Shown here in pieces: positions 21,191 through 60,490 of a stretch of DNA of 64,000 bases. The stretch covers positions 1,860,001-1,924,000 of the forward strand of contig CM022665.1 in assembly GCA_012295275.1 (NCBI GenBank), read 5' to 3'. This stretch comes from Chrysomallon squamiferum. Taxonomy: Eukaryota > Animalia > Mollusca. The notes under the pieces are model-generated. The model saw nothing but the letters and a program-made list of their open reading frames with translations, did not search any database and was not told the DNA's origin. Every line of letters begins with the position of its first letter. Positions within the stretch are counted from its first letter, which is position 1. Position numbers and translations under genes: made by a program.

Positions 21191-24100
21191 GAATTGGTAG
21201 ACTTGTAATAACCATTATTGTGATAGTTTTTGAATTTCACCAAGTACATCTTTTCTACAAAATATATATTTTACAATGTCAAACACACCATGAATAAATG
21301 TGTAAAAATAAATTTAATATGAACAGTTACTTTTAATGACAGTCAAATGTTTCTTGTAAGTTGTAAAATTATGGCTTGAGTTTGGAAACCTGCAGTCACC
21401 ATGGACTAATCCTACTAATTAGCAGCAAAGGAATCTATCAATTCATTTCCTTAGACAGGAAGGATATACAATGACATTTTGAAAAACTCATGCTTAAATT
21501 ACAAACATTTATTATTAAAATTACATATAATACAGTATAAATAACACTGAATCAAACCATATAACATTTCTGATTTTAGAGGGTTTCTTTTCCAAAAGCT
21601 GGGATCCAGAATTATTCGTTTTGTACCAGGACAGTACACTAGCCTGGTTCAAAAATGAAAAAAGCATTAATCCAAAAGGGAGTGTGTTTTTGAAGGTAAT
21701 TCAGTATGCACAAACAATTTAACATTTAATTTTAAATGTTTGTTATTACATATCTGATTTTTACTTTATGCTGGGCTGGGTTGTTTTAATTTTATTAGTC
21801 ATGTTTTGTTGTTGATTGAAACATTTTTACAATATCTGTTTTCATACATTAGATATCTCACATTATTGTTAGAGCACCTACTTGTACAGATATGTATATC
21901 ATTTAGAGTATTCAATTCATTCCTGCTGGTGTTGAACATTTCATATACATTGTTTTAGATGTGTTTACAAAATATTTAATTACTTTTGTAAATAGACTGG
22001 ATTGAATTGTGGCATATTTCTACTTTTGAAATTCCAGTGAGCAGTTATTAAACATTTGATGAATTACACAAGTATTTAAGTATACAAAACTGTATTCATA
22101 TCCTTAGTGCTGGTGAATTTATGAATATTTTTACCATCTGCTACATAAAATGCATATTAATAACTGATCATATAAGTTATGTATCTGGCAGTTGATAAAA
22201 ACTAAAATATTCTGAAATGTTCTTTTAAAACAACTTTTTTTTTTTTTTTAAACAAAATGTATTTGTAATATTGTGTTTGCTGAAGATATTTCAGATATAT
22301 AATACTATTAATTTACTAATGACGACTGGTTTATAAAGTAAGTTATATGTAATAAATTTATACTTTGGCTGAAGATATTGGAATTAAATTAATGATAATT
22401 ACAATATCAGTCATAAAGATAGAAATGTTTTTGTTTTCACTCAGCTACTACAGTAGCGTAAACTATGACAAAATGAATGTTTTTAATATTTTACTTTGTA
22501 CAAAGGATGTTTGTCAGTTCCTTGCTGTTGGATTAGTATGTCAACAAGTTCCAAAACGGCCAGATCTGCCAAAAGGAGGACGACTGACAAATTTAATAGG
22601 AATTCCAAAACAGCCTAGCACTAAGACTGAAATGGTTTGGGCTCTCTGTTCAAATGAAGATGATATAAAGTAAGCTTTTGATTTTATAAAATTCAAATAG
22701 TTTATTTATCATGTTAATGATACATCTTTATATATATTTATGAATTAATAATCTTATCACACTATTTCAAAAGATAAATTAAATATTTTGTGTGTTTTAG
22801 GTCCTGGGTTGAAGCAATCATTAGTGTGGTAAGTACAATAAAATGAGACATATATTTATTATTTTAATTTATTTATTTATTTATATAATTTATTTATTAC
22901 CTGTTAATTTCACACCAGTAATCATTTAAAAATCTTCACTACAAAGTTTTGCCTTAAATCATAGTAGCTTTTAATATTTCTATTATGTTTATTTACTCTA
23001 TCAATAGTTTCTTGAAGAGAAATTATAAAACATTTTCAAGTCATGAAAACGTATTTTTAAGGCAGGACACATACATGTATCATGGTTTTGTACTATAGTC
23101 ACTGTATATTAATTAGTAGTACTAGTTCTTTTGTTATGATTTGTGACACTATTATCAAGTTACATGCATTGCTAGTTGAATTTATATGAAAGTACATTAT
23201 TTTTGCAGTTACCTCCACCACCACAACCACCACCTCAGGGACAGCCAGGTGGGCCTCCAGGGCCTCCTCCTCCAGGGGTTCCTCCAGGACCACCACCCCC
23301 TGGTTTTCAACCAGGATACACTCAAGGTACAAAACTGTTGAAATGTGCATTCCAAAATACCAGTACATTTTTATTTTCCTTCAGTAATGTTTCTTTATAA
23401 ATGCAATATTGTTGATTTGTTCTGCAACATATTGTTATAAATCAATGAAAAAAACATTTTCTGTTCAGATCTGCTAATCTTCATGTGTATCTGATCAATT
23501 TCACTTGCTGCTTGTACTGACATCATCATCTTTCCTCATTTATCAGAATCTGTGTGTTTAATATTTAGTATAATAACTATTTAAAAGCACAGTTTGCTTA
23601 TTTATATATTTTTTTAATCCTTTTTGTATCTCAGTTTCTTAAAAAAAAAAAAAAAAAAAAAAAGAAGAATAATCATTATTATTTTGGTGTCACAAACAAA
23701 ATGTTCTTTATTAGATATAGAATGATTCCTTTATTTTGAAGAGATGTATGTTCCTATTTCCTAGGACAGCCAGCGTATCCACCACCACAAAGAGGATTTG
23801 GTGGGACAGCACCACCACCAAATTACGGACCACGACAAGGTGCTTACCCACAGCAGCAGCATGTGCCACAAAGGGGTGGCCCAGGTGGTAACACTACAGT
23901 GATAGTGCAGGACAGAGACAGAGGTGGATCTGATGGTTTGGGTGGTTTTGCTACAGGTAAGTAACTTTGGGAAGGTTACTTTTAAGCAGAATGTTTATTA
24001 TGAAGGCAGTTTCTAAAAATGTGAAAGAACAAAGGCGGTGCTGTTCACGAATAATTAAACAGTATTGTTCTTCATTAAAGAAAATTAGTCAGTATTTTGG

Positions 24101-24701
24101 ACATAATGTGGTTGTTTTCTAATTAGTGTATATATGTTATTGTTTGTTATTTGTTCTTTGTGAGCAACACTGGAATTAAAATGTGTGATTTGAAAAAGTT
24201 GGAAACATCAAAGTTTTCACTGCTCAGGTATATTTTGACTCACTTTGACTGTCAAAATAATCTGGTTTTACAAATTTGATTAATGTGTAACATTATAAGA
24301 ATATAGATTTAACTAACACTAATTATTTTTCAGGAATGCTTCTTGGTGGTGCTTTGGGTTATGGAATGGCAAGACCTTTTGGATTTGGTTGGGGTGGTGG
24401 TTATTATGGAGGCTGGGGGGGTGGTTGGGGTGGCGGGTATCATGACTATGGTCCTGATTACCACATAGAAAATAATTACTACGTGGAAAACACAAACATT
24501 GAAAACACTGAAATCAATGAAACAAATGTGGAAAACAATTATGAAGATGGTCAGGAGTATGATGATGGTGGAGGATATGATGATGGTGGGGGATATGATG
24601 ATGGTGGGGGATATGATGATGGTGGGGGTTATGATGACTTTGGAGGAGGGGATGATTTTGGTGGTGGTTTTGATGGGGGTGATTTTGGAGGTGACTTCTA
24701 A
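20548..24701 (+). CDS. PH-domain protein, evectin/PLEKHB-like, paralog 1
   Basis: Exons 20548-20584, 21015-21059 (LKSGYLKKF), 21580-21695 (SWDPELFVLYQDSTLAWF), 22506-22669, 22801-22828 (SWVEAI, PH C-terminal helix Trp), 23209-23326 (Pro-rich), 23765-23956 (TTVIVQDRDR), 24334-24701 (GMLLGGALGYGM then Gly/Tyr/Asp tail). The layout PH domain, Pro/Tyr-rich linker, VII-basic segment, GMLxGxAxG matches evectins. Confidence 0.85.
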
Positions 24702-30200: not shown

Positions 30201-33200
30201 TTATTATTATTATTGTTATTACTATTACTATTACTATTACATCATGTAACTGAATTGTAATACAGGGTAAACGAAAAAAAAGAAAAAGAAAAGACAAACT
30301 TTGTTATTCATTCAACAGTTTTATAAAGTATTATAAAAATATCCCACATCACTTGGAAAAACCAAAACAAACAAATGTAGCAGTTTGGCATTTGGGAAGA
30401 AATAAAAATAAATAAATGAAATATTATGCAGTTTTTAATTATACACACATATGTATATACTTTTTTTAATACCTTTTTAGCAAATGCTGCAAGATGCAAG
30501 TATGGTTACATGAGGAAATTTAATAGTAAGTATATATCATATTATAATAATTCACTATTTTAATTTATGATTTTTTCTTCTCTCTCTCTCTCTTTTGCTG
30601 TAATTTTATTGAAACTAAGCATTCTGGGATTACCATTGGCACTGTCAAATAATCAGTATTATTAATCCTGACAGTAACTATTATTAAAATAAATGTACAG
30701 ATTGTTTTTGTTTTTTGGTCACAGCATCATATATGTTTAAAGCTTTTCAGTTTAATTCGTGTGTGTTATACATTTCATAGAATAACGTGATGAGAAACAT
30801 CAAGTACGCATTAATGATGAAACTACATCACAAAGACGCTTTGACCCTATATCTCTCCATTACAAAATAACAGAACAGAGATTGAATTGCGAAATATCAA
30901 AATATAATAACAACACATTTCGAGCAGGACACGTATTTACTGAAACGGTATTTTTATCTCAGTAACTGAAATTAGACCATTCAGCAATTATAAGTATTAC
31001 AATGAAAAATACGTACATTGAAAATGAGTATTTTGCTACGTCACATTCAATAGAGTTTATATTCCACTAGGCAACGTCACGTCGGCTGTTATTGAATAGA
31101 ATCAATATTGACTTTGACGTCACTGATATAGGTTTAGTTATACATATATTAATAAAACAGCTTAATGGACAATAATGGCTTTCACTTGTGACCTAATGCA
31201 CTTTCTGTTTGAAGTAAGGCGTACGTGTATTCTACGTATTTGAATGTGTGGTTTATATAGACTAACACAAACAACAAAAAGAAAGACGAAAGAAAATAAA
31301 ATAAGAAAGAAAAGAAAAGAAAAGAGTATAAAAAAAAAAAAAGAAGAACTTCAACAACATATTAGAATGAATACATGTATTAGTATGCGTGTGTCTTTTA
31401 TATACGCTAGATTTGTGAAAATACAGAGACATATGCGACTGAACTCTGTAATTATTGGCTAAGAGTGCGAATGATCAACGTAAGTGGCTTCCTGTTATGC
31501 AGAGAATTTTGTCTCTCGTAATTTTCTCAGACAACATAACCTAGCTTATAACAGTTAACACACATCAAATGTGCTGTCGCATATATGAACACATGCTATG
31601 GATCTCTACTATTTACTTAATATTTCAGTATATGACTTCACAAGATCGTTATATCTTTGAAGAAAATACTACATTTAATTACTTTAGAGCCTCAGTAAAA
31701 AGAGTAACGTTATCCTGTTAACAAATATTAATATGAACATACATCTTAAAATTAATACATTAAAAAAAGAGGAAAATTTGAAGAGAACAAACAACTATGT
31801 AATAAATATATGAATAAATAAAAAAAGAAAGAAAAACGTTTCACTTCTTGATTGTTTCAGAGGGTACGTTTTCCAAGAGCTGGGAATTAGAACTATTTGT
31901 TTTGTTTCAAGACAGCACATTGGCATGGTATAAGAATGAAAGCAGTTTTCAGCCAAAAGGATATGTTTTTCTTCAGGTAAAGAATTGTGACTTAATTTCT
32001 TTCTATTTATTTATTTATTTATTTATTTATTACTGGTGAAATATTTACAGTTTATATTTTAGTGGATATATATATATAACATGATTTGGTTAAATTTGAT
32101 GTTATTTTATGTAAAATGTTTGATTTGACAGGACGTCTGTCAGTTTCTTGCTGTTGGAATGGTCTGCAGGCAGGTTCCAAATCGGCCGGAACTACCACCA
32201 GATGGAACTCTTGACTGTTTAATAGGAATCCCCAAGAAAGCCAGCAAGAGCGCTGAAATGGTGTGGGCCCTGTGCTCCAGTCAAGAAGAATTAAAGTAAA
32301 CTTTTATTATCACTGAATTATTCCTTTATTGTACATTTTACTTCAGAATATAAATCTCATTAGCAGATATGGTGTTTCGTGCTGGGGTGTTGTTAAACAT
32401 TAATTCATTCAGAATATAAATAGAATGACCCAGAGGTTAAAGACCCTGAAAGTAAATTTACATTTAAGCACAAAACATTTATTAAGGAAAGATCATCGAC
32501 TGCTTAGAACACAACCCTAATGTACATGTGCACACACACATACAAATATATAAACATGATTTTATTGTCGAAGTGTCCATTATTTGCTAAACTGTGAAGT
32601 ACGAGTAAAGCACACTCATATTTTTTACAAATTAAAATTTTAAGTATTTTACGCTGTAAGACTTGTTCCTTCCATACTTGACTAACTTTAATTAATAATG
32701 TACCTTTTTTTTCTCTTATTTATTTTTTTATTATTTTTTTTTTTGCGTTAAATAAGAGTGTTTTTGGCACAATGTTTATTGTTTAACTATCGTAAATAGG
32801 TTTTATTATTACTATTATTGACAATTCTGCATGGCTGAATTTGAAAAGATCTCATTTGGAGTACTGTACTTTTGACCAAAATAGCTTAACGCTTCATGTA
32901 TTTGGTTAGTTTACAGTTACAATATGACCTGCTTCTGTTGTTTCCAGGGGAAATTTAAAGAAAAAAAAATAATTAAAAAAATGCTTTCAGTTAATCTTTG
33001 TCACAAACACTGAGATGACACAAGTTATAAACCTTTACATATGTGACAAAAATTAAAAAAAAAAAAAAAAAAAAACCCATAAATTTCCAAAACCACATCG
33101 CAAGCCCATTCCTATTTAATCAGGATATAGTTATAATGAACGAGTCTAGTTTCCAAATATACAGGTCACCGAATTCAAACCCTCAGTATTTGTCTTTCAC

Positions 33201-34272
33201 ATTGTTAATGTATAGTTGAGCGAGTCGGTCACTGGCTTCTGTATGAGATTAACTCTTCTTTAAAAGGTTGCAAAATCAAACATTGTAGAAGTTGCAAAAT
33301 CGAAAATTAACAGAATATCGTTACACGTTAAAAGAATACCAACTATCTTTAACGTGTCCTTGACAGCCATGCTTTAACGTACGCTAATAAACTTCCTCAG
33401 TCTTGCAAATCAACGATTATTACTGAAGTAGCTCTCGGCCTTTTTTTCTTTTGATACTGAACTCTGGAATAAAATCATTTTAATTACTTTTGGAATTCCT
33501 TAAGGGTGAAGTGGTCTGAAATAATATTATCGATTAGGACAAATAAAGGAACATGCAAATTAAAAAAAACGTAACACACGCAAGTACATTAATTAAAATA
33601 AATGAATAAAAGAATAAATATTTAATTTATTTGGTCCGGCCCATTCTGCTCAGGTAACATGATTGCTTTATATCGATCGATAAGATTTGTAAATAACATT
33701 GCAGTGTACTTGATATAAACTGCTTTTAAAAACGTAGACTATGATTATGCAGTACCCAGTATACATTCAAAACCAGCAATCTAAAGAGGGTAGTGTAATT
33801 CATCATTATCATTAAGATTAATATTATTTTGTTGTTGTTATGAAGGAAATGATTAGATTAATTAGAAAAGAGTTTTTGTTTATTACATCTTACAATTAAT
33901 ACAAATACACACACACACACGAACACACACAACCACACACACACACAACGTACCGATATTGTATGTATGTATGTATGTATACACACAAACACACACTAGT
34001 ATTTTTTGCTATTTGTAGAGAATGGATGCAAGCCATGTCGGCAGTAGTAAGTATTTTATATTATCTGCATTCCTTTTCTTTTTTCAATTTTACAAATAGT
34101 GTATAAAATAAATACATCATCATGTTAACGAATTTAAGTATAATATTTAGTGCTAGGTTTGTAAGTATGACTGTCTCAGGGGGTGGTTGGTTTGTGACCA
34201 CTGATCTATAATTTGAACTTGGAAAAGATTGGCAAATACCCAAAGCACCCCTTTTCCTGGGTTATTCATAAT

Positions 34273-34306
<34 letters not shown>

Positions 34307-35646
34307 ATTATGAATAACCCAGTAAAAGGGTTATAAATATGTATATATATATATATAAAAAAAATTTTAAAAACAGTAACAGAAAAAGTAGGAGATTGGG
34401 CCAGTTGGGAATCTGTATTATTATGATTATGTTACTGAAATGTCATTTTTATTGTACCTTTTTTTTTTTAGATTCAGCAGCCACCTCAACAACAGCAACA
34501 GTTGCCACCGCAGCCTTCAAATAGCGCAGTGCCACAGCAACAACAGATACCTCAGTCTACAGTAGCTGCTGCTCGGTACCCACAAGGTGAAAAATACTTG
34601 ACTGACAGATAACTAATTATCAGTGCAAGGGGCGAGGGGTACTTTAAGAGAAAGAGAGAATGTTAGAAAGGCTGTAAATATCTTGTTTTTACGTTTCATA
34701 ATCCCAGTTAATCGAGCATTTTCTGTTTTCTGACAACAGGCAAGCCACACAAACCACAGAAGGTTCGCTACTCAGGAAATCAGAGAGATAATTCATCTCA
34801 CACCGTCATCATTAAAGAGAGACGTCGTTCGAGTGGCAGCAGTGGCGACTTTGCAGCTGGTAGGTATCAATGACGAGACTGTATTTATATTCTGATGTTA
34901 CTTTGATGAAATAATTACCATGTTACTTAACAATTCTAATGCGATAAGACGTAATAATAGTGCTTCTCGTTTGACCAAATGCTGGAGATGACTCGGCATA
35001 ATAGTGATTCACTTTATTATTTTAATCTATCTGTCTGTTGTACATACGCATATAAATTTGTTTTGCAGGCCTCCTCCTTGGCACCGCTTTGAGTGGAGGT
35101 CACATAGGTCCACACTTCGGTTTTGGTCGTGGATGGGGCGGTGACTATTTTGATCACAGATGGGACCACCATCATGGTTATTACGACAATGGACCTGATG
35201 TTCACATAGAAAATAATTACTATTCAAACACCACAAATATTGAAAACACGAACATTAATGAAACTAATGTTGAAAATAATATTGATAGTGAAATTGCTGA
35301 TGAGCAAGTAAATGACGAAGAAGCTATTGAAGGTGACGTAGCTGAAGAGGGTGAGCCAACAGAGGCAGGCGAACCACCTGAGGAAGAATGCGAGCCTCCT
35401 GAGGAAGAATGCGAGCCTCCTGAAGAAGAATGCGAGCCTCCTGAAGAGGAATGCGAACCACCCGAAGAGGAATGCGAACCTCCCGAAGAGGAATGCGAGC
35501 CTCCCGAAGAAGAATGCGAGCCTCCTGAAGAGGAATGCGAGCCTCCTGAAGAAGAATGCGAGCCTCCCGAGGAAGAATGCGAACCACCTGAAGAGGAATG
35601 CGAACCACCTGAAGAGGAATGCGAGCCACCTGAAGAGGAATGCTAA
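29574..35646 (+). CDS. PH-domain protein, evectin/PLEKHB-like, paralog 2 with (EPPEEEC)13 tail
   Basis: Exons 29574-29610, 30481-30525, 31861-31976, 32132-32295, 34019-34046, 34472-34586, 34740-34859, 35069-35646. Exon phases, and the lengths of exons 1-5 (37, 45, 116, 164, 28 nt), are identical to paralog 1. Confidence 0.85.
34249..34330. repeat. Palindrome centred on (TA)n
   Basis: CCCTTTTCCTGGGTTATTCATAATCTTA-(TA)n-TAAGATTATGAATAACCCAGTAAAAGGG; one mismatch. Confidence 0.9.
35371..35643 (+). repeat. Coding 21-bp minisatellite, 13 copies (EPPEEEC)
   Basis: 273 nt = 13 x 21. Only synonymous variation between units. Confidence 0.95.
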
Positions 35647-38126: not shown

Positions 38127-38479
38127 GTAATAATAGTAATAATAATAATAATAATAATAACAACAATAATAATAATAATAATTTGTATTTATTTATTTAT
38201 TTATTTATTTATTTGTATTGTTATTACTGTTATCAGAAACGGAAAAATACTGGTGTAAATAAAATATTTATTATTATTATTATTTTTTAAATCATTTTAT
38301 TTAATAAATATTTCAGACAAAACTCATTATTTTTCTGTCTACTGTTATTCTGGAGAACATATAGCTTAGTGGTTAGATTGTAGCGCAGAAAGGTTGTTAA
38401 TATTATTATAAGAACAGTTAAGTAGAAATAAATATAAATAACGTTAAAAAATAAATAAAAAAATAGAAAAATAATAATA

Positions 38480-38576
38480 AAAACTGGACAGCGTCCGTGG
38501 TTCTGTGGGATCGAACCCACTTCAGTTCAAATGCTTGGTATGCTTTAACGAAGTAACCACTGGACAATAGCCAGTC
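38480..38576 (-). ncRNA. Vault RNA-like Pol III gene, copy 1
   Basis: GACUGGCUAUUGUCCAGUGGUUACUUCGUUAAAGCAUACCAAGCAUUUGAACUGAAGUGGGUUCGAUCCCACAGAACCACGGACGCUGUCCAGUUUU(U). A-box, B-box GGTTCGATCC, T5 terminator, 5'/3' panhandle stem. Confidence 0.8.
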
Positions 38577-39192
38577 CTGATTATAGCCTCGTATTTAACG
38601 TATTAGTGTATATTGTTAATTGTTTCATGTACAGGTGTCAGTTTTGACCAGTAGTAGCTGTAAGTCAGAGTAGCACAGACGTACTCGTTTGTAGGTGGGC
38701 GTGGGGTGGGGGGTTGCGGTTTGTAAAGTATTTGACCACAGTTTGTAGATCTAGCTTCTTCTTAATTCGCAACTAGTGTGCTATCTCAATTCTAATAAAA
38801 TAACAATGGTCTAATCATGTCAGTTGTATTTTACATATGAGCAACAATACAATAACACTTTTTTTTTAATTTTAATTTTTTTTTAAATTTTTTTTTTAAA
38901 CATTCTATTTAATAAATATTTCAGACAAAACTCATTATTTTTCTGTCTACTGTGATTCTGGAGAACATATAGCTTAGTGGTTAGATTGTAGCGCAGAAAG
39001 GTGCCGTTATTTTCCGTTCCAGCAAAATACCTTTCTGTTGTAAGTGTGAACAATGAGCGTCATCTCTCATTATTACGTATGCAAAATCTGACACGTGACG
39101 TTGTTAATATTATTCTAAGAAAAATTAAGTAGTAATAAATATAAATAGTTCAAATTAAGAAAGAAAGGAGAAAAAAAAAAAATAATAATAAT

Positions 39193-39294
39193 AAAAACTG
39201 GACAGCGTCTGTGGTTCTGTGGGATCGAACCCACTTCAGTTCAAATGCTTGGTATGCTTTTTCTAACGAAGTAACCACTGGACAATAGCCAGTC
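39193..39294 (-). ncRNA. Vault RNA-like Pol III gene, copy 2
   Basis: As copy 1, with a 4-nt insertion in the central variable loop and one G>A change in the 3' stem strand. Confidence 0.78.
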
Positions 39295-40203
39295 CTGATT
39301 ATAGCCTCGTATTTAACGCATTAGTGTATATTGTTAATTGTTTCATGTACAGGTGTCAGTTTTGACCAGTAGTAGCTGTAAGTCAGAGTAGCACAGACGT
39401 ACTCGCTTGAAGGTGGGCGTGGGGTGGGGGGTTGCGGTTTGTAAAGTATTTGACCACCGTTTGTAGATCTAGCTTCTTCTTAATTTCAATACGTTTTTTA
39501 TTATAATTATTATTATTTTTCATTGCTTGAACAAACGTCGATTTATTTTTGTAACTATTTATCAGAGTATTTATACTTTGCGAAATTACTGTGCTAAAAG
39601 ATATTGAAAAAATAATAATACTAAAAATAAATAATAAGATAACAAATATCTTTAAATAGTTTAGTGGTGGGTTGAGTTATGCACATTATTTAATAAATAT
39701 AATTCACGTATAATGTTACAATACATCCCAATATTTAGAAAAATTATTTGAAAACAATTAGAAACATTTCTGCTCAGTTCGCAACTAGTGTGCTATCTCA
39801 ATACTAATAAAATAACAATGGTCTAATCATGTCAGTTGTATTATGCGTATGAGCAACAATACAATAATAATTTTTTATTTATTTATTTATTTATTTATTT
39901 TAAACATTCTATTTAATAAATATTTCAGACAAAACTCATTATTTTTCTGGCTACTGTTATTCTGGAGAACATATAGCTTAGTGGTTAGATTGTAGCGCAG
40001 AAAGGTGCCGTTATTTTCCGTTCCAGCAAAATACCTTTCTGTTGTAAGTGTGAGCAATGAGCGTCATCTCTCATTATTACGTATGCAAAATCTGACACGT
40101 GACGTTAATATTATTCTAAGAAAAATTAAGTAGTAATAAATATAAATAATTCATATAAAATAAGGTTAATAAATAAATAAATAAATAAATGCAAATAAAA
40201 ATA

Positions 40204-40301
40204 AAAAACTAGACAGCGTCCGTGGTTCTGTGGGATCGAACCCACTTCAGTTCAAATGCTTGGTATGCTTTAACGAAGTAACCACTGGACAATAGCCAGT
40301 C
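40204..40301 (-). ncRNA. Vault RNA-like Pol III gene, copy 3
   Basis: As copy 1, with one C>U change in the terminal stem (G-C becomes G.U); T6 terminator. Confidence 0.78.
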
Positions 40302-40921
40302 CTGACTATAACCTCGTATTTAACGTATTAGTGTATATTGTTAATTCTTTCATGTTCAGTGTGTAGATCTAGCTTCTGCTTACTTTTAATATGTTTTTTT
40401 ATTGCTTGAACAAACGTCGATTTATTTTTGTAACTATTTGTCAGTGTATTTATACTTTGCGAAATTACTGTGATAAAAGATATTTAAAAAAATAATAATA
40501 ATAATAAAAAAATAATAAAATACTTTCACATTTTTTCGTACGTACATGAATATCTTCAACATACTTTATCTCTCAAACAGTATTTTGCCGGTGACATATT
40601 GGTAGTTCTAACCCCCCACCCTGAACACATTTTTAGCTTTCTTTGTTTACCATATTTACTACTGTACTACATGACAAACAACAACATCCTGTTCATTTCT
40701 GCTGTTTTAATATATTTACCAATTTACTTGTTCATATTAATAAAGTATATTCGTCCAAAGGCAATAATTTGTTTATTTTATCTATTGTCATTTTCTTCAG
40801 GAAATTAGTCGAACACACCAAATATAAAAAGATACAAAATGTTTTTTTACTTAAAAAAAAAATTAAAAACGCATTTTAAAAATGTATATATTTTATTAAT
40901 AAAAATACACGTGTTAATGTA

Positions 40922-47850
<6,929 letters not shown>

Positions 47851-50971: not shown

Positions 50972-53611
50972 ATATACTCATCACAGTATCTTAACTTATT
51001 ACTACTAATTATTTAATAGAGTGAAAATTCAAGCTGCTTATGTAAATAAAGTTGTGCTGTTCTATATAAATTGAAAAGGTAATATTTTTTTATGAGCATA
51101 AGAAATGTTTTTTTACTTTTTATTAAAAATGTTAGATTCAAGTACGTCATTTGAAAGATCTTGATAAATTGTTCACAACACAGGTTGAATTTGTCAAATA
51201 ACTGATTCCACAGTGTCTATTTGCACTTATAATCATTCTGCCATGTGTCATTTTGAAGATTTCGGCATGTTTAGCATGTTATTGTGAACACACATACAAA
51301 CATACAGATCTGAAAAAAATTGACCTCATTTAGCAAGTTGGTCCAATCACTCTTGTTGATTTTCAGCCTTTTGTGTCAATTACTTTTCAAACTACAGTTG
51401 GCCAAAGTAGCCCTTTCTGCTAATTAGCCAAAATAGGGCTAAAAAACAACCAAATACCTGTCATACCGATTTGCATATATCTTCTGAACCGCTGGAGTCG
51501 TAATTTTTTGTTTGTTTTCATTCTTTTTGCTACAGCTTTCATAATGTGCTAATTTTTTGCATATTATGTGAAATTAAAGTCAGAAAAAATTTGCCTGCCG
51601 GTACCTATCTATAGTAAAATATATGTTTTTTACATTTGTTTTGATTATTATAGTTATTATATTGTAATTATTAATTAAATGCCATGTGTTTTTTTTTCTC
51701 ACTAAATCCAAATAAGGGTTAACATTTTAATAAAATGAAATCCAATTGATGTTTCTTATTTGAATCAGTGATATAATAACTGTTTAAAATTGTCTTTCAG
51801 GTACAATCACTCTAAAGTTTGGAACTCCTTGGGCCATGAGAGATGCCATTAAATTTCTTTATCTGGGCTGTGTGAGGGTTTCCTTAGAAAATGTAAAGGA
51901 TCTTCTTGAAGCTGCTGAATATCTTCAGATATCCGAGTTAAAGAAATGTTGCAGTGATTATCTGTACAGTATAGATCTCACTGTCGATAATTGTGTCAGT
52001 CTTTCCCTGCTGTCCAGTCTGTATGACCTAGAATTGTACAACAAAACATTCCAGTACCTAAGAGGCCACTTGCCTGATGTGATGAATAAAGATGAGATGC
52101 TGGAGCTGACCAAAGACTCCATAATGTCTTTTCTTGTAGATGAAACTCTAACATATGTTCGACAAATAGACTTTTTCAAATTTATTGTTCGCTGGACTAA
52201 TCATGATCTAGAGAAGCGAAAAGGACATTTTTCAGAGTTGTTTACGTCACTGGATCTAAGTAAAATTGGCAAAACACATCTTGAAGAGGAAATAGAATCC
52301 AATGAGCTAGTTGTTAGTGATGAAAAGTGCAAGATCCATGTTCTCAATGTTAAACTGAAACATATGTCAGGTCTTCTTTCTGAAACTTCTGATCATAAAG
52401 AAGTTATTTTGTTGTGTGGTGGCAGTGGCCCAGGTGTTTATATTGGCCACTTTATGCTCCCATTCTCTGATTTTATGGCAGTGAGTAATGTATTTGCATA
52501 CATCGTTGAAGAGAAACGATGGACTGAATTGTCACCACTTCCCTATGCCATCAGGCGTCCAATGTTAATCTGTGATAATGCTGGCAATTTTTATGTGTAT
52601 GACATTTCTCAAAGCTTGGAAGGATCATACATATTTCAGTTTAAGGTTACTGAAAGGACTTGGTCCAGCATCAAGGTGTCATTTCCCAGTAATTGTGAGA
52701 ATGTATCTGTTCAGAGCATGTTGTGTTGTTCTGATCGGATCTTTTTTGTGGCATCAGGAATGGTAAAGAAATCTCGTCAAGGGGGTGCAGCTGCAGCAAG
52801 TAGCAGTCCTCCTCTGTCATGGAGTTGCTTTCTTATGGAGGTCAACCGAGAGGGTAATGAAAGTCAAATATGCTGTAATCTGTTTCCCAGAAATGTGAAC
52901 ACTGAAATCAAAGCATGCGTGTTCAAAAATATGTACATTTGTGTGAGTGGCTGGAAGTGTGGGGAAAAACAGGGAAAGAGTTGCCGATCCAACAGCAGGT
53001 TTATATACTATGATGTCAGACAAGGAAGAAGAAATGATGGGTCCAAAGGCAGCCATTTTGAATCATGTATGCTTCCTTACCAAGATGGAATCCTTATTGG
53101 TAAACCAGGCAAGACCAGTGTGAGAATGTTCTCATTCAGAGACCGCAGATGGAGACTGCAAAGGGATCTTGGTATTCCTTTGCCCCCAGAACATTCAGAT
53201 CGCTCGGACTACTCCTACCTGTGTTACAACGAAGAACTGTACGTCTTTGGAGGGAAAAGTCAAGATACACGGCAGCCTCTGAAGACTGTTTTCAAGTACA
53301 ATCTTGAAAAAAAAATATGGCTGAAGCTGGAAGACATGCCAGAGTCTTTGATGGGAAGTGGAGTTGCTATTGGCCGACTTCCCACAGAACAGGTTTGCTG
53401 TCACATCAACTGTCCACACTGTCAGTACATAACACGACGCAGCCAGGCCACTTATGACATAACATTTTCTGATCCCGATGAAGATGACGACTATTCTTAT
53501 GATGATTATTCCTACGAGTACTCCAATCACTCCTATCTCTGGGATGACGATGATGGTGATGTTGATGATGAGGATTTATTGGAGCCAGGCTATGATTATT
53601 GGGGATACTGA
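49017..53611 (+). CDS. BTB-BACK-kelch (KLHL/KBTBD-like) protein
   Basis: Exons 49017-49142 (FCDVALLIG), 49490-49574 (FKAHWCVLVSCPFFQSLYDSGMKE), 51801-53611 (LLEAAEYLQI, BACK domain, kelch-like LYVFGG...VFKYN...W). Confidence 0.9.
49635..51607. mobile_element. Non-autonomous DNA transposon (hAT-like), ~1.97 kb, in intron 2 of the kelch gene
   Basis: Perfect 13-bp TIR TAGGTACCGGCAG / CTGCCGGTACCTA. Perfect flanking direct repeat TCTATAG (49628-49634 and 51608-51614). No long ORF. Confidence 0.85.
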
Positions 53612-56633: not shown

Positions 56634-58871
56634 TTAAATCATGTACATATTTTTTGTGTTACTCAAACAGTGTGATAGGACTGTTTCGACTGAAATGTTT
56701 TTCAGACGTGCCACTTCAACAGCAACAACAACTGCCATTCCTGGGTGAGAAACAGGCAGTTCATTCCGTGGAACCTGAATTTAAAAAAAAAGAAAAAACA
56801 AAAAACAAAGCTATTAGCAATAATGTCAGCTCAGTATATGTGATATGATATTTACAAATGTGCATATATATTGTAAAGGAAGCAGAACGAAAATTTAATG
56901 TAGAAATAAGATAACGTTTTTCAAAATATAATCATAATGCATAAAATTAAACCATAAATCAATTTCTGCTAATGATAGAACAGATAAAAAGAAAATATTA
57001 TTTACTGTTGAAGGAACAAAGTATGGAGCATCAGTTTCAAGCAACAATTTGTCAAGGGAAATGTTTTGAGCCACCTCCTGGATTGGTTTGGCAGTTGTAT
57101 AAGTGACCAATGGAGTTAACCCAATATACAGATTAGAAAACTTATTCAACCATTTTTTGCAACTGGCATAATTTCCAGTAAAGCAATGTAAATGGATCTT
57201 GTAATTTGTTGGAACAATCTGAAAAAATAATAAAATAAATAAATAAATGAATGAATGAATGAATTTTATTTATTTATTTTCAGTGTTTGTAAAAAATTAA
57301 ATTTTTATTAATTCTTACAGTCAGCAAGGATGTTTCTGATAAATTATTTTTTGTTCTAGTGTATGTTATTTACAATGTGTTAAATAAACACTAACATTGT
57401 AACTATATAACTAAGTTCACCAACTGTCACATAAAAAAAGCGAATTCAAAAAAAAAAAAAAAAATAATAATAATAATAATAAAATACCCTCAATGAACAA
57501 TTAACTTAATACCAATATTTTACCTTGTATTTTTTTAATGTCAAAATAAAAAATTACAAGAATGTGTCATTAACTTAAACTATTTGTTTTTTTAACCAAA
57601 CTATTTTTTGTTTTCAGCCAATACAAGAAAAGAAAAGCTAAGCAGTTCAATTTACCTTTTCCATTATCTTCAGACAGTCATTTTCTGCATCTCTGCAATG
57701 GATCACAATTGGTTTTTTTACTTCTATAGCAAACTTCAGTTGTTTGATGAAGACAGATTGCTGGACTTCCTTATGCTGATAAAACCTTTTAATAACAACA
57801 GTCAGTTTATACTTGTTATTTCACTTGCTAAATTTCACCAATTCAAACATTTCAGGACTTTTTTTTATAACGAAAAATTATTTCAGTGTTGCTTTTCTTA
57901 TATAAAAGCATACAGACTGATTTGTTCAAACCATAACAATTGAAACAGTCACCTGATAGGAAACAGAAACTTTTAATATATTTATTTTTGTTTTTAAAAT
58001 ATCTGAAATTGTAAACAATAAATCACATCAAAAATAAAATTTGAAGTAGTTTTCTTTCTTACGTTCCAGAATAGTCAAGGCCAATTTCTCCAACAGCAAC
58101 AACTTTGGGATGCTGAACACAAATTTTCAAATTATTAAATAAGGTGTCGTTTAATCGAAAGGCATGCTTTGGGTGGCAACCCATTGCAATGTAAATAGTT
58201 GACTTGATGTCCATCACAAGGTCAAACCAGAGACCCTCTTAAATAAAAATTTATAAAATGAAATTATATATTACAAAAACAGTTTGACAGTGTGATAGAC
58301 TGGGTTATGATTAACTAGTCTGTTTTGGAAATTAGACAAACATTTCAACTCTTCATTGTATTTTATCAGTACTTTAGATTGTCATTTTGAAAAAGGATTC
58401 AGAAGAACAAAAATGCTCATTTTTATTAAATTGTATACATCTGAAAAACTCTTTGATTAAATAAAATTGTCTAGACTCACCCTGAGGTATAAATGAAGCA
58501 GGGTTGCAGAACACAGCTATGCAGCCAGAGAAGTTTTCAGGAAATGTCTCTTTATTCTGTTGCCTGAAATTTTCAAATGTACCCTGAAAATGAACTCTAT
58601 CAAACAGAAAATCAAGATGACAATGAGAATCAATAAATGGCATAGAAAATCCACAAAATTTTCTTTTGAATTTTTCCTTCCAGTCAAAAGGTGGTGAACT
58701 GGGAGATGTGTTATCATGCAATCTATAACCAAAAGAACTGGAATCTTGTAGATTCATCTTTTCAAATTTATTAAATAAAGAACACATGTTCTTTGATTCT
58801 GAAAACTTTCTTGTGCATTCCACTGGAGCTATACATGTTGTTGTAGGAGATGTGGATTCCCTGTCAGACAT
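56634..58871 (-). CDS. TatD-family nuclease (TATDN2-like)
   Basis: Intact exons: ...58871-58481 (FIDSHCHLDFL), 58237-58063 (GCHPKHA, GEIGLDY), 57785-57656 (VIHCRDA), 57218-57006 (HLHCFTG, LLETDAPYF), 56774-56634 (SHPG, stop TAA). The start is uncertain; the first ATG after the last upstream disruption is at 58871. Confidence 0.88.
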
Positions 58872-60490
58872 TAATTCACTCTGAGAGAAAAACACAGCTT
58901 TTTCTTCTAAACTACATGCTGGTATTGATTCTGATGGGCTAAATGTTCTTGAAGATATATTGTTAGACTGTTAATTAATTTCAGTATTTAACACATGTTT
59001 TGAAATAAGATCACTGGAGATGTATTTTGAAGTGTCTTTAGGCTGATGTTCAGCAATATAAGAGTAGGGATAGAAATTTGGATAAATTTCTACCTGGATC
59101 AACACATGAATAATGAATGTCTGGTTCAGTTTTCTCTACTCTAGTACAATCTTCACATGCAATATCAGATTTACTGTTCCTATGAGTCATGGTTTCCCTA
59201 ATATTAAGATCCACAGCAGTCTTTTTCCCTTTAGTATTAGTGAGATCCACTAATACTTTCTTCACTGAGAATGTTATCTATATTTCTGCACGATATCTTT
59301 AAATGAGGTTCAGTCTCTACACTCCTGTGATCCCCTGCAGTTTCTGTTTCAGTATCATTTGTATTGTCAGCCTGTTTCTGAAATAAATTTTCAGATAAAT
59401 AAGTGTCATCAAAATCTAAAAACAAAACAACATTTAAAATCAAAATTGTTGATCAATTCATGTTAGTGAGAAAATCTATATTATTGACAGATGCATACAT
59501 TGTTCATCAGTAATATAAATCTCTATTATTATCTGTATTTTAAAACAGTTGCTTGAAATAACGCATGTTAGATGATGAGAAAAATATGTGGCAAATAACA
59601 GAAATTACATTTCTGATCAATTGGAAATCTTACTTTAAACAAGAATGTAAAAGCCATTTTTCTTTTTGAAAAAGGATGAAGCTATATTAAATTCTTACTG
59701 CGATGTTGCAACTGATACACTTGTCTTTGAACAGAATTATGAGGTTCACTTTGATATAGATCACCCCCCAATGATATGGGATGGTTCAGAAGGTGCTGAT
59801 CTGGATTTCAGTCTCAAAGTTACAAAAACAAAATCTATCTGAAAAGACATATTGATTAATAATTAAATACAGTTCATACACAGCTTTCTTGGAAATACTG
59901 TCATTTTATTTAATGCGTTTTCTTCTCAAAACTCACTACTAAAAGGATTTCCTCATCAATGTTGCCAACCATGAATATGTTCTTGAATAACAATTAATTT
60001 TTCAAATAATTTAAGAAGTGACATCATTCAAACTTTATTCAGAGATTTGTGTATTTCTAACCTATTCGATTTTCAAAAAAGTTTCAGAACGACCTTGCTG
60101 AAATTCAATAATTCAAACACTTATATCTACAAGAAATATATTTTATTTTCCAACAAAGTGTGGTTAAAATCTTGCTGATAAACAATTTTCTTAAATTATG
60201 TTCAACAATTGTATATTTGCTCCTCCTGTATTGACAAAAATGTGATTTTTGGCTTTTTCCATCTTTGATGAATATTATCATCTTCCAAACAACTACAATT
60301 TGTACTATATCATTAACAAAAATGTTTGTGAAAACAGATTAAAATTCATTCTGGTAACATGTAAATTAATTAATAGTTGGATCTATCAGTTCTTAAGTTC
60401 ACTATTTTTGTTCTGGAATTCATTTATTTTCTGTTAAATACAAATTAATGTAGTTTTTAAGAACATTATTTTCTGAACTCCCAATTTCTG
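58872..60490 (-). pseudogene. Disrupted N-terminal exons of the TatD gene
   Basis: The exon starting at acceptor 59415 has two frame changes and an in-frame TAA at 58973-58971. Exon-like segment 59838-59699 is closed in all three frames unless one base is removed. Confidence 0.5.

Follow-up and report, generated by a model that had tools for sequence, protein, structure and literature searches.

Three vault RNA genes downstream of ADAT3

Three minus-strand genes in the 64-kb window (the whole stretch of Chrysomallon squamiferum DNA analyzed here) are real, ordinary new members of the vault RNA (vtRNA) family in a gastropod and have been triplicated recently. We hold with high confidence that these recently duplicated family members likely specify a Pol III-made panhandle RNA of about 100 nt, which would bind TEP1 and in part enter the vault. 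Copy 1 (vt1) lies at 40202..40302 (RF00006 score of 55.3 bits, E value of 1.1e-9, terminator of six T's), copy 2 (vt2) at 39191..39295 (51.7 bits, 1.1e-8, five T's), and copy 3 (vt3) at 38477..38577 (55.5 bits, 9.4e-10, five T's). Counted to the fourth T of the terminator, the units span 40301-40205 (97 nt), 39294-39194 (101 nt), and 38576-38480 (97 nt), respectively, lengths that fall inside the 80- to 150-nt range of vault RNAs. They were the only three Rfam family matches in the entire window; their alignments cover positions 1-99 of the 99-position RF00006 (Vault) model, and the full-model scores exceed the curated gathering score of 34 bits by 18 to 21 bits. By-eye comparison of the first 29 positions with the Rfam consensus line gave 22 identities. 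A BLASTN search with one unit as the query returned no fourth copy in the 64-kb window, and no further vault-like copy emerged from 35.7-47.5 kb in a permissive Rfam scan. The original prediction had placed three vault RNA genes on the minus strand at these positions and had named an RF00006 search as a check; with 51.7 to 55.5 bits against a cut-off of 34, no tRNA call, low copy number, and compensatory changes across species in the terminal stem, both the placement and the family assignment were upheld.

The internal promoter boxes and oligo-T terminator that had been predicted are present in every unit. In vt1, the A-box region with the GGTTACTTCG motif was located at 40274..40292 (minus strand) from the sequence and the Rfam alignment, and the B box at 40230..40245 (minus strand), where it falls in a T-arm-like hairpin predicted to have 5 bp and a 6-nt loop (pair probabilities of 0.69 to 1.00; MFE and centroid folds). 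The same elements are found in vt2 and vt3, both boxes being identical in the three copies, and a run of five or six T's stands directly 3' of the closing stem in each unit. Under the scheme of PMC8824774, after Stadler 2009, the marks of a vault RNA are a box A with 3' TTACTTCG, a box B, and a Pol III T run within 150 nt; vt1, vt2, and vt3 carry each of these, with one A-box base off consensus (a T at a position where the consensus is a purine). The vault-specific GGTTACTTCG and 3' CGCTGTCC motifs also occur together in the unit. Directly upstream, a 57-nt segment (40303..40359 at vt1, minus strand) is common to the three copies by alignment and motif scan, as is the terminator, and represents a candidate upstream Pol III element. 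The motif scan found in it a weak TATA-like TTAAATA about 21 nt upstream of the gene, less marked than the upstream TATA of two metagenome loci considered below (L003 and L012). CRE-like motifs occur downstream of vt1 and vt2, but none lies within 400 nt upstream of any copy, and a promoter role for them was rejected.

By analogy with the family, TFIIIC would bind the internal boxes, and Pol III would start at the G at 40302/40301 (and at the equivalent positions of the other copies) and stop in the T run. The closing helix with its conserved GGUUACUUCG segment would be recognized by the TROVE domain of TEP1, which would stabilize the RNA and bring the smaller part of it to the MVP shell, most of the RNA staying free. 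Published accounts describe vtRNAs as transcribed by Pol III from split internal A and B boxes (PMC7916137), state that vtRNA stability and vault association in mouse require TEP1 (PMC2193651), and report that the TROVE domain of TEP1 binds vtRNA and that most vtRNA lies outside the particle (PMC3762200). In mussel gill, MVP protein is found in abundance (PMC5302490), and the trypanosome vault contains vtRNA too (PMC12547018). In the cDNA-library run X9, contig cover was zero over the three units and 2-3 deep at the 3' end of ADAT3, contigs of this kind being uninformative for a 100-nt RNA. Expression and vault binding of vtRNAs in snails look untested in the literature searched.

Predicted fold and the B-box hairpin

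The minus strand of each unit folds as a panhandle, with MFE and centroid predictions in agreement and z-scores of -2.9 (vt1), -2.2 (vt2), and -3.1 (vt3) against dinucleotide shuffles. This predicted fold is the one originally described, with two exceptions among the proposed pairings: the terminal stem of vt1 holds one G-U wobble (TCTAG rather than TCCAG), and the GUCC stem (P2) of vt2 holds a C.A mismatch. The vt2 unit also carries a 4-nt insertion in the central loop. Two copies were also folded as the plus strand, with z-scores of -1.7 and -2.7, so folding alone does not fix the strand; the boxes and the terminator do.

The B box had been assigned to a GUGGG/CCCAC hairpin, with which the predicted fold agrees. 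The 6-nt loop of this hairpin is one nucleotide shorter than a tRNA T-loop, and the hairpin sits outside, before the closing stem, where the snail copies have 7 nt more between the B box and that stem than the RF00006 model; these extra nucleotides form the predicted T-arm-like hairpin. The inner helix of the Rfam model (5' UUCG with the B box) fits the CM alignment, yet its predicted probability in the window copies is 0.0, since the local B-box hairpin wins in the prediction.

Scanning metagenome contigs with a two-box motif gave 59 loci, of which 10 reached the RF00006 cut-off and 49 were dropped. Pairing was counted in nine sequences, namely, the three window copies and 6 of the 10 metagenome loci, with L050 and L056 omitted as near-duplicates and L027 and L055 omitted for their tRNA overlap. 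In this set, which leans towards pairing (sequences picked by motif and model score, registers anchored by hand, no shuffle control), the terminal stem P1 was paired in 63/63 cells, with both sides changed at four of its seven positions, while P2 was paired in 33/36 cells and P3 in 51/54. As the set is motif and model selected and draws on about four lineages, the covariation backs the structure but does not prove it.

The GTGGG/CCCAC hairpin precedes the closing stem in the window copies and in L003, L036, and L049 (pair probabilities of 0.69 to 1.00), and a compact arrangement as in the Rfam model is found in L012 and L058. Since its stem is invariant, the B-box hairpin displays conservation without covariation. 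The eukaryote-like loci L003/L056 and L036/L049/L050 resemble the snail copies in their RF00006 match (57-58 bits) and in carrying this hairpin before the closing stem, but they differ in having a canonical 7-nt hairpin loop, a clear upstream TATAAATA, and a single copy in metagenome contigs. At L055 (78-208, plus strand), a tRNA-Met(CAT) call at 103-178 lies within a vault-type panhandle with terminator; at L027 (694-840, plus strand), a tRNA match lies inside the Vault match, and a second partial copy follows 243 nt further on; and at L036 (2188-2301, minus strand), ARAGORN places a tRNA-Asp inside the Vault match. At L033 (418-568, plus strand), the Vault match is 151 nt long and scores 47.3 bits; a long additional hairpin separates its B box from the closing stem. 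The contig holds a direct repeat of about 270 nt whose end falls within the 5' portion of the RNA, so this locus may also be tandem.

A bolder interpretation, which we consider possible but doubtful, is that the snail locus is an undescribed invertebrate vtRNA subtype in which a tRNA T-arm module (the B-box hairpin) lies inside a three-way junction, the module being common to other animal-like vtRNAs, with a gradation towards vault-type panhandles built around a complete tRNA-like cloverleaf (L055, L027, and L036). It would be joined by active birth and death of copies in the snail, with two- and three-copy haplotypes homogenized by gene conversion. If true, the T-arm subtype would be a visible trace of the origin of vtRNA from tRNA. 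The near-identical copies and the T-arm-like hairpin offer concrete and cheap tests of how vtRNA structure evolves; the question of vault function is not opened by them.

Tandem duplication, copy number, and other explanations

The three genes sit in a recent tandem duplication block (38265..40522, unstranded) with copy-specific deletions, in which self-BLAST gave 87-94% identity including gaps and to which the repeats D4, D6, D7, D8, D12, and D13 belong. Gene spacing within the block is 1007 and 718 nt, and the duplicated unit, about 1 kb in length, takes in both flanks. The RNA copies show 1 or 2 differences per 98 positions (98-99% identical), to which vt2 adds its insertion, and the aligned flank segments are 92-98% identical (2-8% substitutions) with long copy-specific deletions; from the identity of the flanks, we infer that the cluster arose recently in the snail lineage. 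Judged from its sequence, the cluster is a young tandem duplication among AT-rich repeats and not the counterpart of the human three-gene locus. The earlier description of a locus clustered as in vertebrates holds in that three genes stand in tandem, but the likeness is one of surface, the flanks pointing to a recent lineage-specific duplication. The extra copies would most likely have come from unequal crossing-over among the AT-rich repeats and would affect dosage rather than provide new function. Purifying selection on the RNA was considered from 4/294 versus 26/608 substitutions (pooled, non-independent pairs), a difference too weak to claim.

Contigs of the public runs X1, X5, and X6 were placed on vt1 at 80% likeness, a setting that less similar paralogues would escape, and 7, 7, and 3 contigs, respectively, touched the unit. 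Four 5' loose ends match, by eye, the vt2 or vt3 flanks in the window; this check covered the 5' side, the AT-rich 3' flank being skipped as low-complexity. The small number of contigs and the location of their 5' flanks inside the cluster argue against a SINE. Dispersed copies, named in the original prediction as the pattern that would tell against a vault RNA locus, were thus looked for at 80% likeness, and nothing like a dispersed repeat was seen in the 3 to 7 contigs per run. Core contigs were deeper than the flanks (196 versus 59-65 in X1, 157 versus 83-96 in X5, and 126 versus 62-63 in X6), such depth being no measure of copy number. Distinct upstream contexts numbered three in X5 and two in X6, which hints at copy-number variation, and the upstream bases of the core contig are of the vt2/vt3 type in X1 and of the vt1 type in X5 and X6, a hint of homogenization within haplotypes. 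In run X10, from another organism, a contig matched only the conserved 5' 33 nt (40270-40302), with 3 differences, and bore the same 12-nt word in both loose ends; the match may be the vtRNA of that organism or a chance repeat.

A reading in which the unit is a tRNA-derived SINE head or a degenerate tRNA pseudogene that scores on a permissive Vault model is very improbable. The unit does have A and B boxes and a T-arm-like hairpin, gastropod SINE superfamilies are described (PMC4758252), and tRNA-overlapping sequences reach 37-43 bits on RF00006. These are L027 (36.7 bits) and L055 (43.2 bits), 2 of the 10 metagenome loci, and they show how permissive the RF00006 cut-off is when used alone. 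Scores of the window copies are higher, and none of these copies has a tRNA match. A cloverleaf with acceptor, D, anticodon, and T arms was not detected: ARAGORN called 0 tRNA genes in the window, the negative outcome that had been expected, and the Rfam scan gave no RF00005 match near the locus even at E values up to 1. The copies are three per 64 kb, all in tandem, rather than dispersed at high number in unrelated flanks. In place of a SINE body, LINE-related tail, or target-site duplications, there is flank sequence shared on both sides of the gene, as in a segmental duplication, and the terminator directly after the closing stem leaves no room for a SINE body. Matching contigs are few and have 5' flanks from within the cluster, and the unit carries both vault-specific motifs.

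It is also conceivable, though unlikely, that the genes are vault RNAs by descent but not all functional: a single gene would work, and one or two others (vt2 being the likeliest) would be by-products of a young duplication, silent or in decay. The mismatch in P2, the insertion, the lowest score, and the weakest fold all belong to vt2; the flanks carry copy-specific deletions; and X6, with its two upstream contexts and a core depth of 126 versus 62-63, fits a two-copy haplotype, as far as depth can be read without equating it to copy number. Against this, vt1, vt2, and vt3 all retain identical A and B boxes, the 57-nt upstream segment, and the terminator, and a one-letter variant over the 3' stem occurs also in contigs of X1 and X5. 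Cover in X6 is zero in bin 39204-39487, but no contig joins across it, so the gap is no proof of vt2 absence. That the assembly made three copies out of one gene is scarcely credible. The RNA copies are 98-99% identical, and the insertion of vt2 is missing from the differences listed for X1, X5, and X6, although the core contigs of these runs pass over its site without a break; yet many substitutions and long indels separate the flanks, and in independent runs two or three distinct upstream contexts converge on the gene. Y RNAs of invertebrates are poorly covered by models, and neither the Rfam search of the window nor the permissive scan gave a Y RNA family match. That result, and a sequence that gives no pointer to another partner, speak against a vault-type Pol III RNA acting apart from the vault, as a free riboregulator or a Y-RNA-like partner of a TROVE protein, which we regard as quite improbable. 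MVP, moreover, occurs in bivalves (PMC5302490). Such a role would suit the figure of about 80% of metazoan vtRNA outside vaults given in PMC3762200, and the B-box region, unlike that of the Rfam model, folds as a T-arm-like hairpin.

Known vault RNAs and the gene neighborhood

Vault RNAs of the gastropod Lottia gigantea and the leech Helobdella robusta were taken from Rfam RF00006 in PMC8824774 (2022), which also lists Macrostomum and reports five expressed vtRNAs of Fasciola. The suggestion that animal vault RNAs are known mainly from deuterostomes, and that a protostome locus might found an undescribed family, therefore fails, as protostome, lophotrochozoan, and gastropod vault RNAs are already on record there. 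The RF00006 members (including Lottia gigantea, Helobdella robusta, and Macrostomum lignano) are like the snail copies in the A box with TTACTTCG, the B box, the panhandle, the T run, and a length of 80-150 nt. A standard Rfam scan annotates the locus, and a gastropod vtRNA is already in Rfam, so that the family call in itself matters little; its modest value is that of an extra lophotrochozoan sequence where invertebrate members are few and mostly untested. No paper devoted to snail vtRNA emerged from the literature search, whose scope excluded Stadler 2009 and the 2019 trypanosome vtRNA paper; T-arm-like hairpins or additional invertebrate members may already be described in those two.

Among described systems, vtRNA1-5 of Fasciola hepatica (PMC8824774) are lophotrochozoan, multicopy, and clustered (4/5 within 133 kb) like the snail genes, with the same 5' motif and with additional sequence separating the B-box region from the 3' stem. 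In contrast, the Fasciola genes have degenerate B boxes, distant and diverged copies, and expression data, whereas the snail locus is known from sequence. The human VTRNA1-1/1-2/1-3 genes resemble the snail cluster in comprising three genes at one locus with a split internal A/B promoter (PMC7916137). The snail cluster differs from the human one in its near-identical copies with homologous flanks, from which its duplication appears young and independent, and in its neighbors, which are ADAT3 and PH-domain genes. Those of the vertebrate VTRNA1 cluster we take to be ZMAT2 and protocadherin alpha.

ADAT3, named as a neighbor in the original prediction, was confirmed by tblastn and named homologues at 40922..46883 (minus strand, eight exon matches). 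The Gigantopelta aegis protein aligned over eight exons between 46883 and 40925, with 233/316 aligned residues identical (74%), compared with about 55-62% for ADAT3 of other molluscs when all 63 matches were ranked. This ranking puts the source animal among the gastropods, as a relative of Gigantopelta but distinct from it, in agreement with the mollusc host considered in the original prediction. The coral protein P0042 was set aside as the top ADAT3 relative, at 50% identity and 795 aligned residues for a 520-residue protein; it led by summed score only, because of overlapping repeated matches. The vt1 gene begins about 620 nt past the ADAT3 stop codon in the same orientation. Eight translated pieces of window genes had no tblastn match on the 10 RF00006-positive metagenome loci, short contigs that are little informative on synteny with ADAT3.

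A single-exon BTB-kelch gene (51827-53611) had its best named matches in Haliotis rubra (59%), Patella vulgata (52%), and the bivalve Potamilus (44%), with one further protein ahead of these at 84%. The Potamilus homologues of ADAT3 (40922-46883) and BTB-kelch (51827-53611) bear locus tags 040180 and 040182 and lie on contigs of equal length; this suggests a gene order common to gastropods and bivalves, and the ADAT3/BTB-kelch region would be worth searching for a syntenic vtRNA. On the plus strand, two similar genes at 22356-24701 and 31818-35646 have Gly/His/Tyr-rich and then acidic low-complexity tails; in the latter gene, a PH-domain exon is accompanied by a long EEECEPP repeat. The pair appear to be tandem paralogues, presumably of a PLEKHB-like gene. 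A glucosidase II alpha-like (GH31) gene on the minus strand has tandem exons with the WNDMNE catalytic motif (9927-9704 and 9657-9434), each 224 nt long with AG/GT ends and 46 nt apart. Because inclusion of both would shift the frame, these exons look mutually exclusive and would give two active-site variants. Exons of a TatD-family nuclease gene lie at 56895-58970 on the minus strand.
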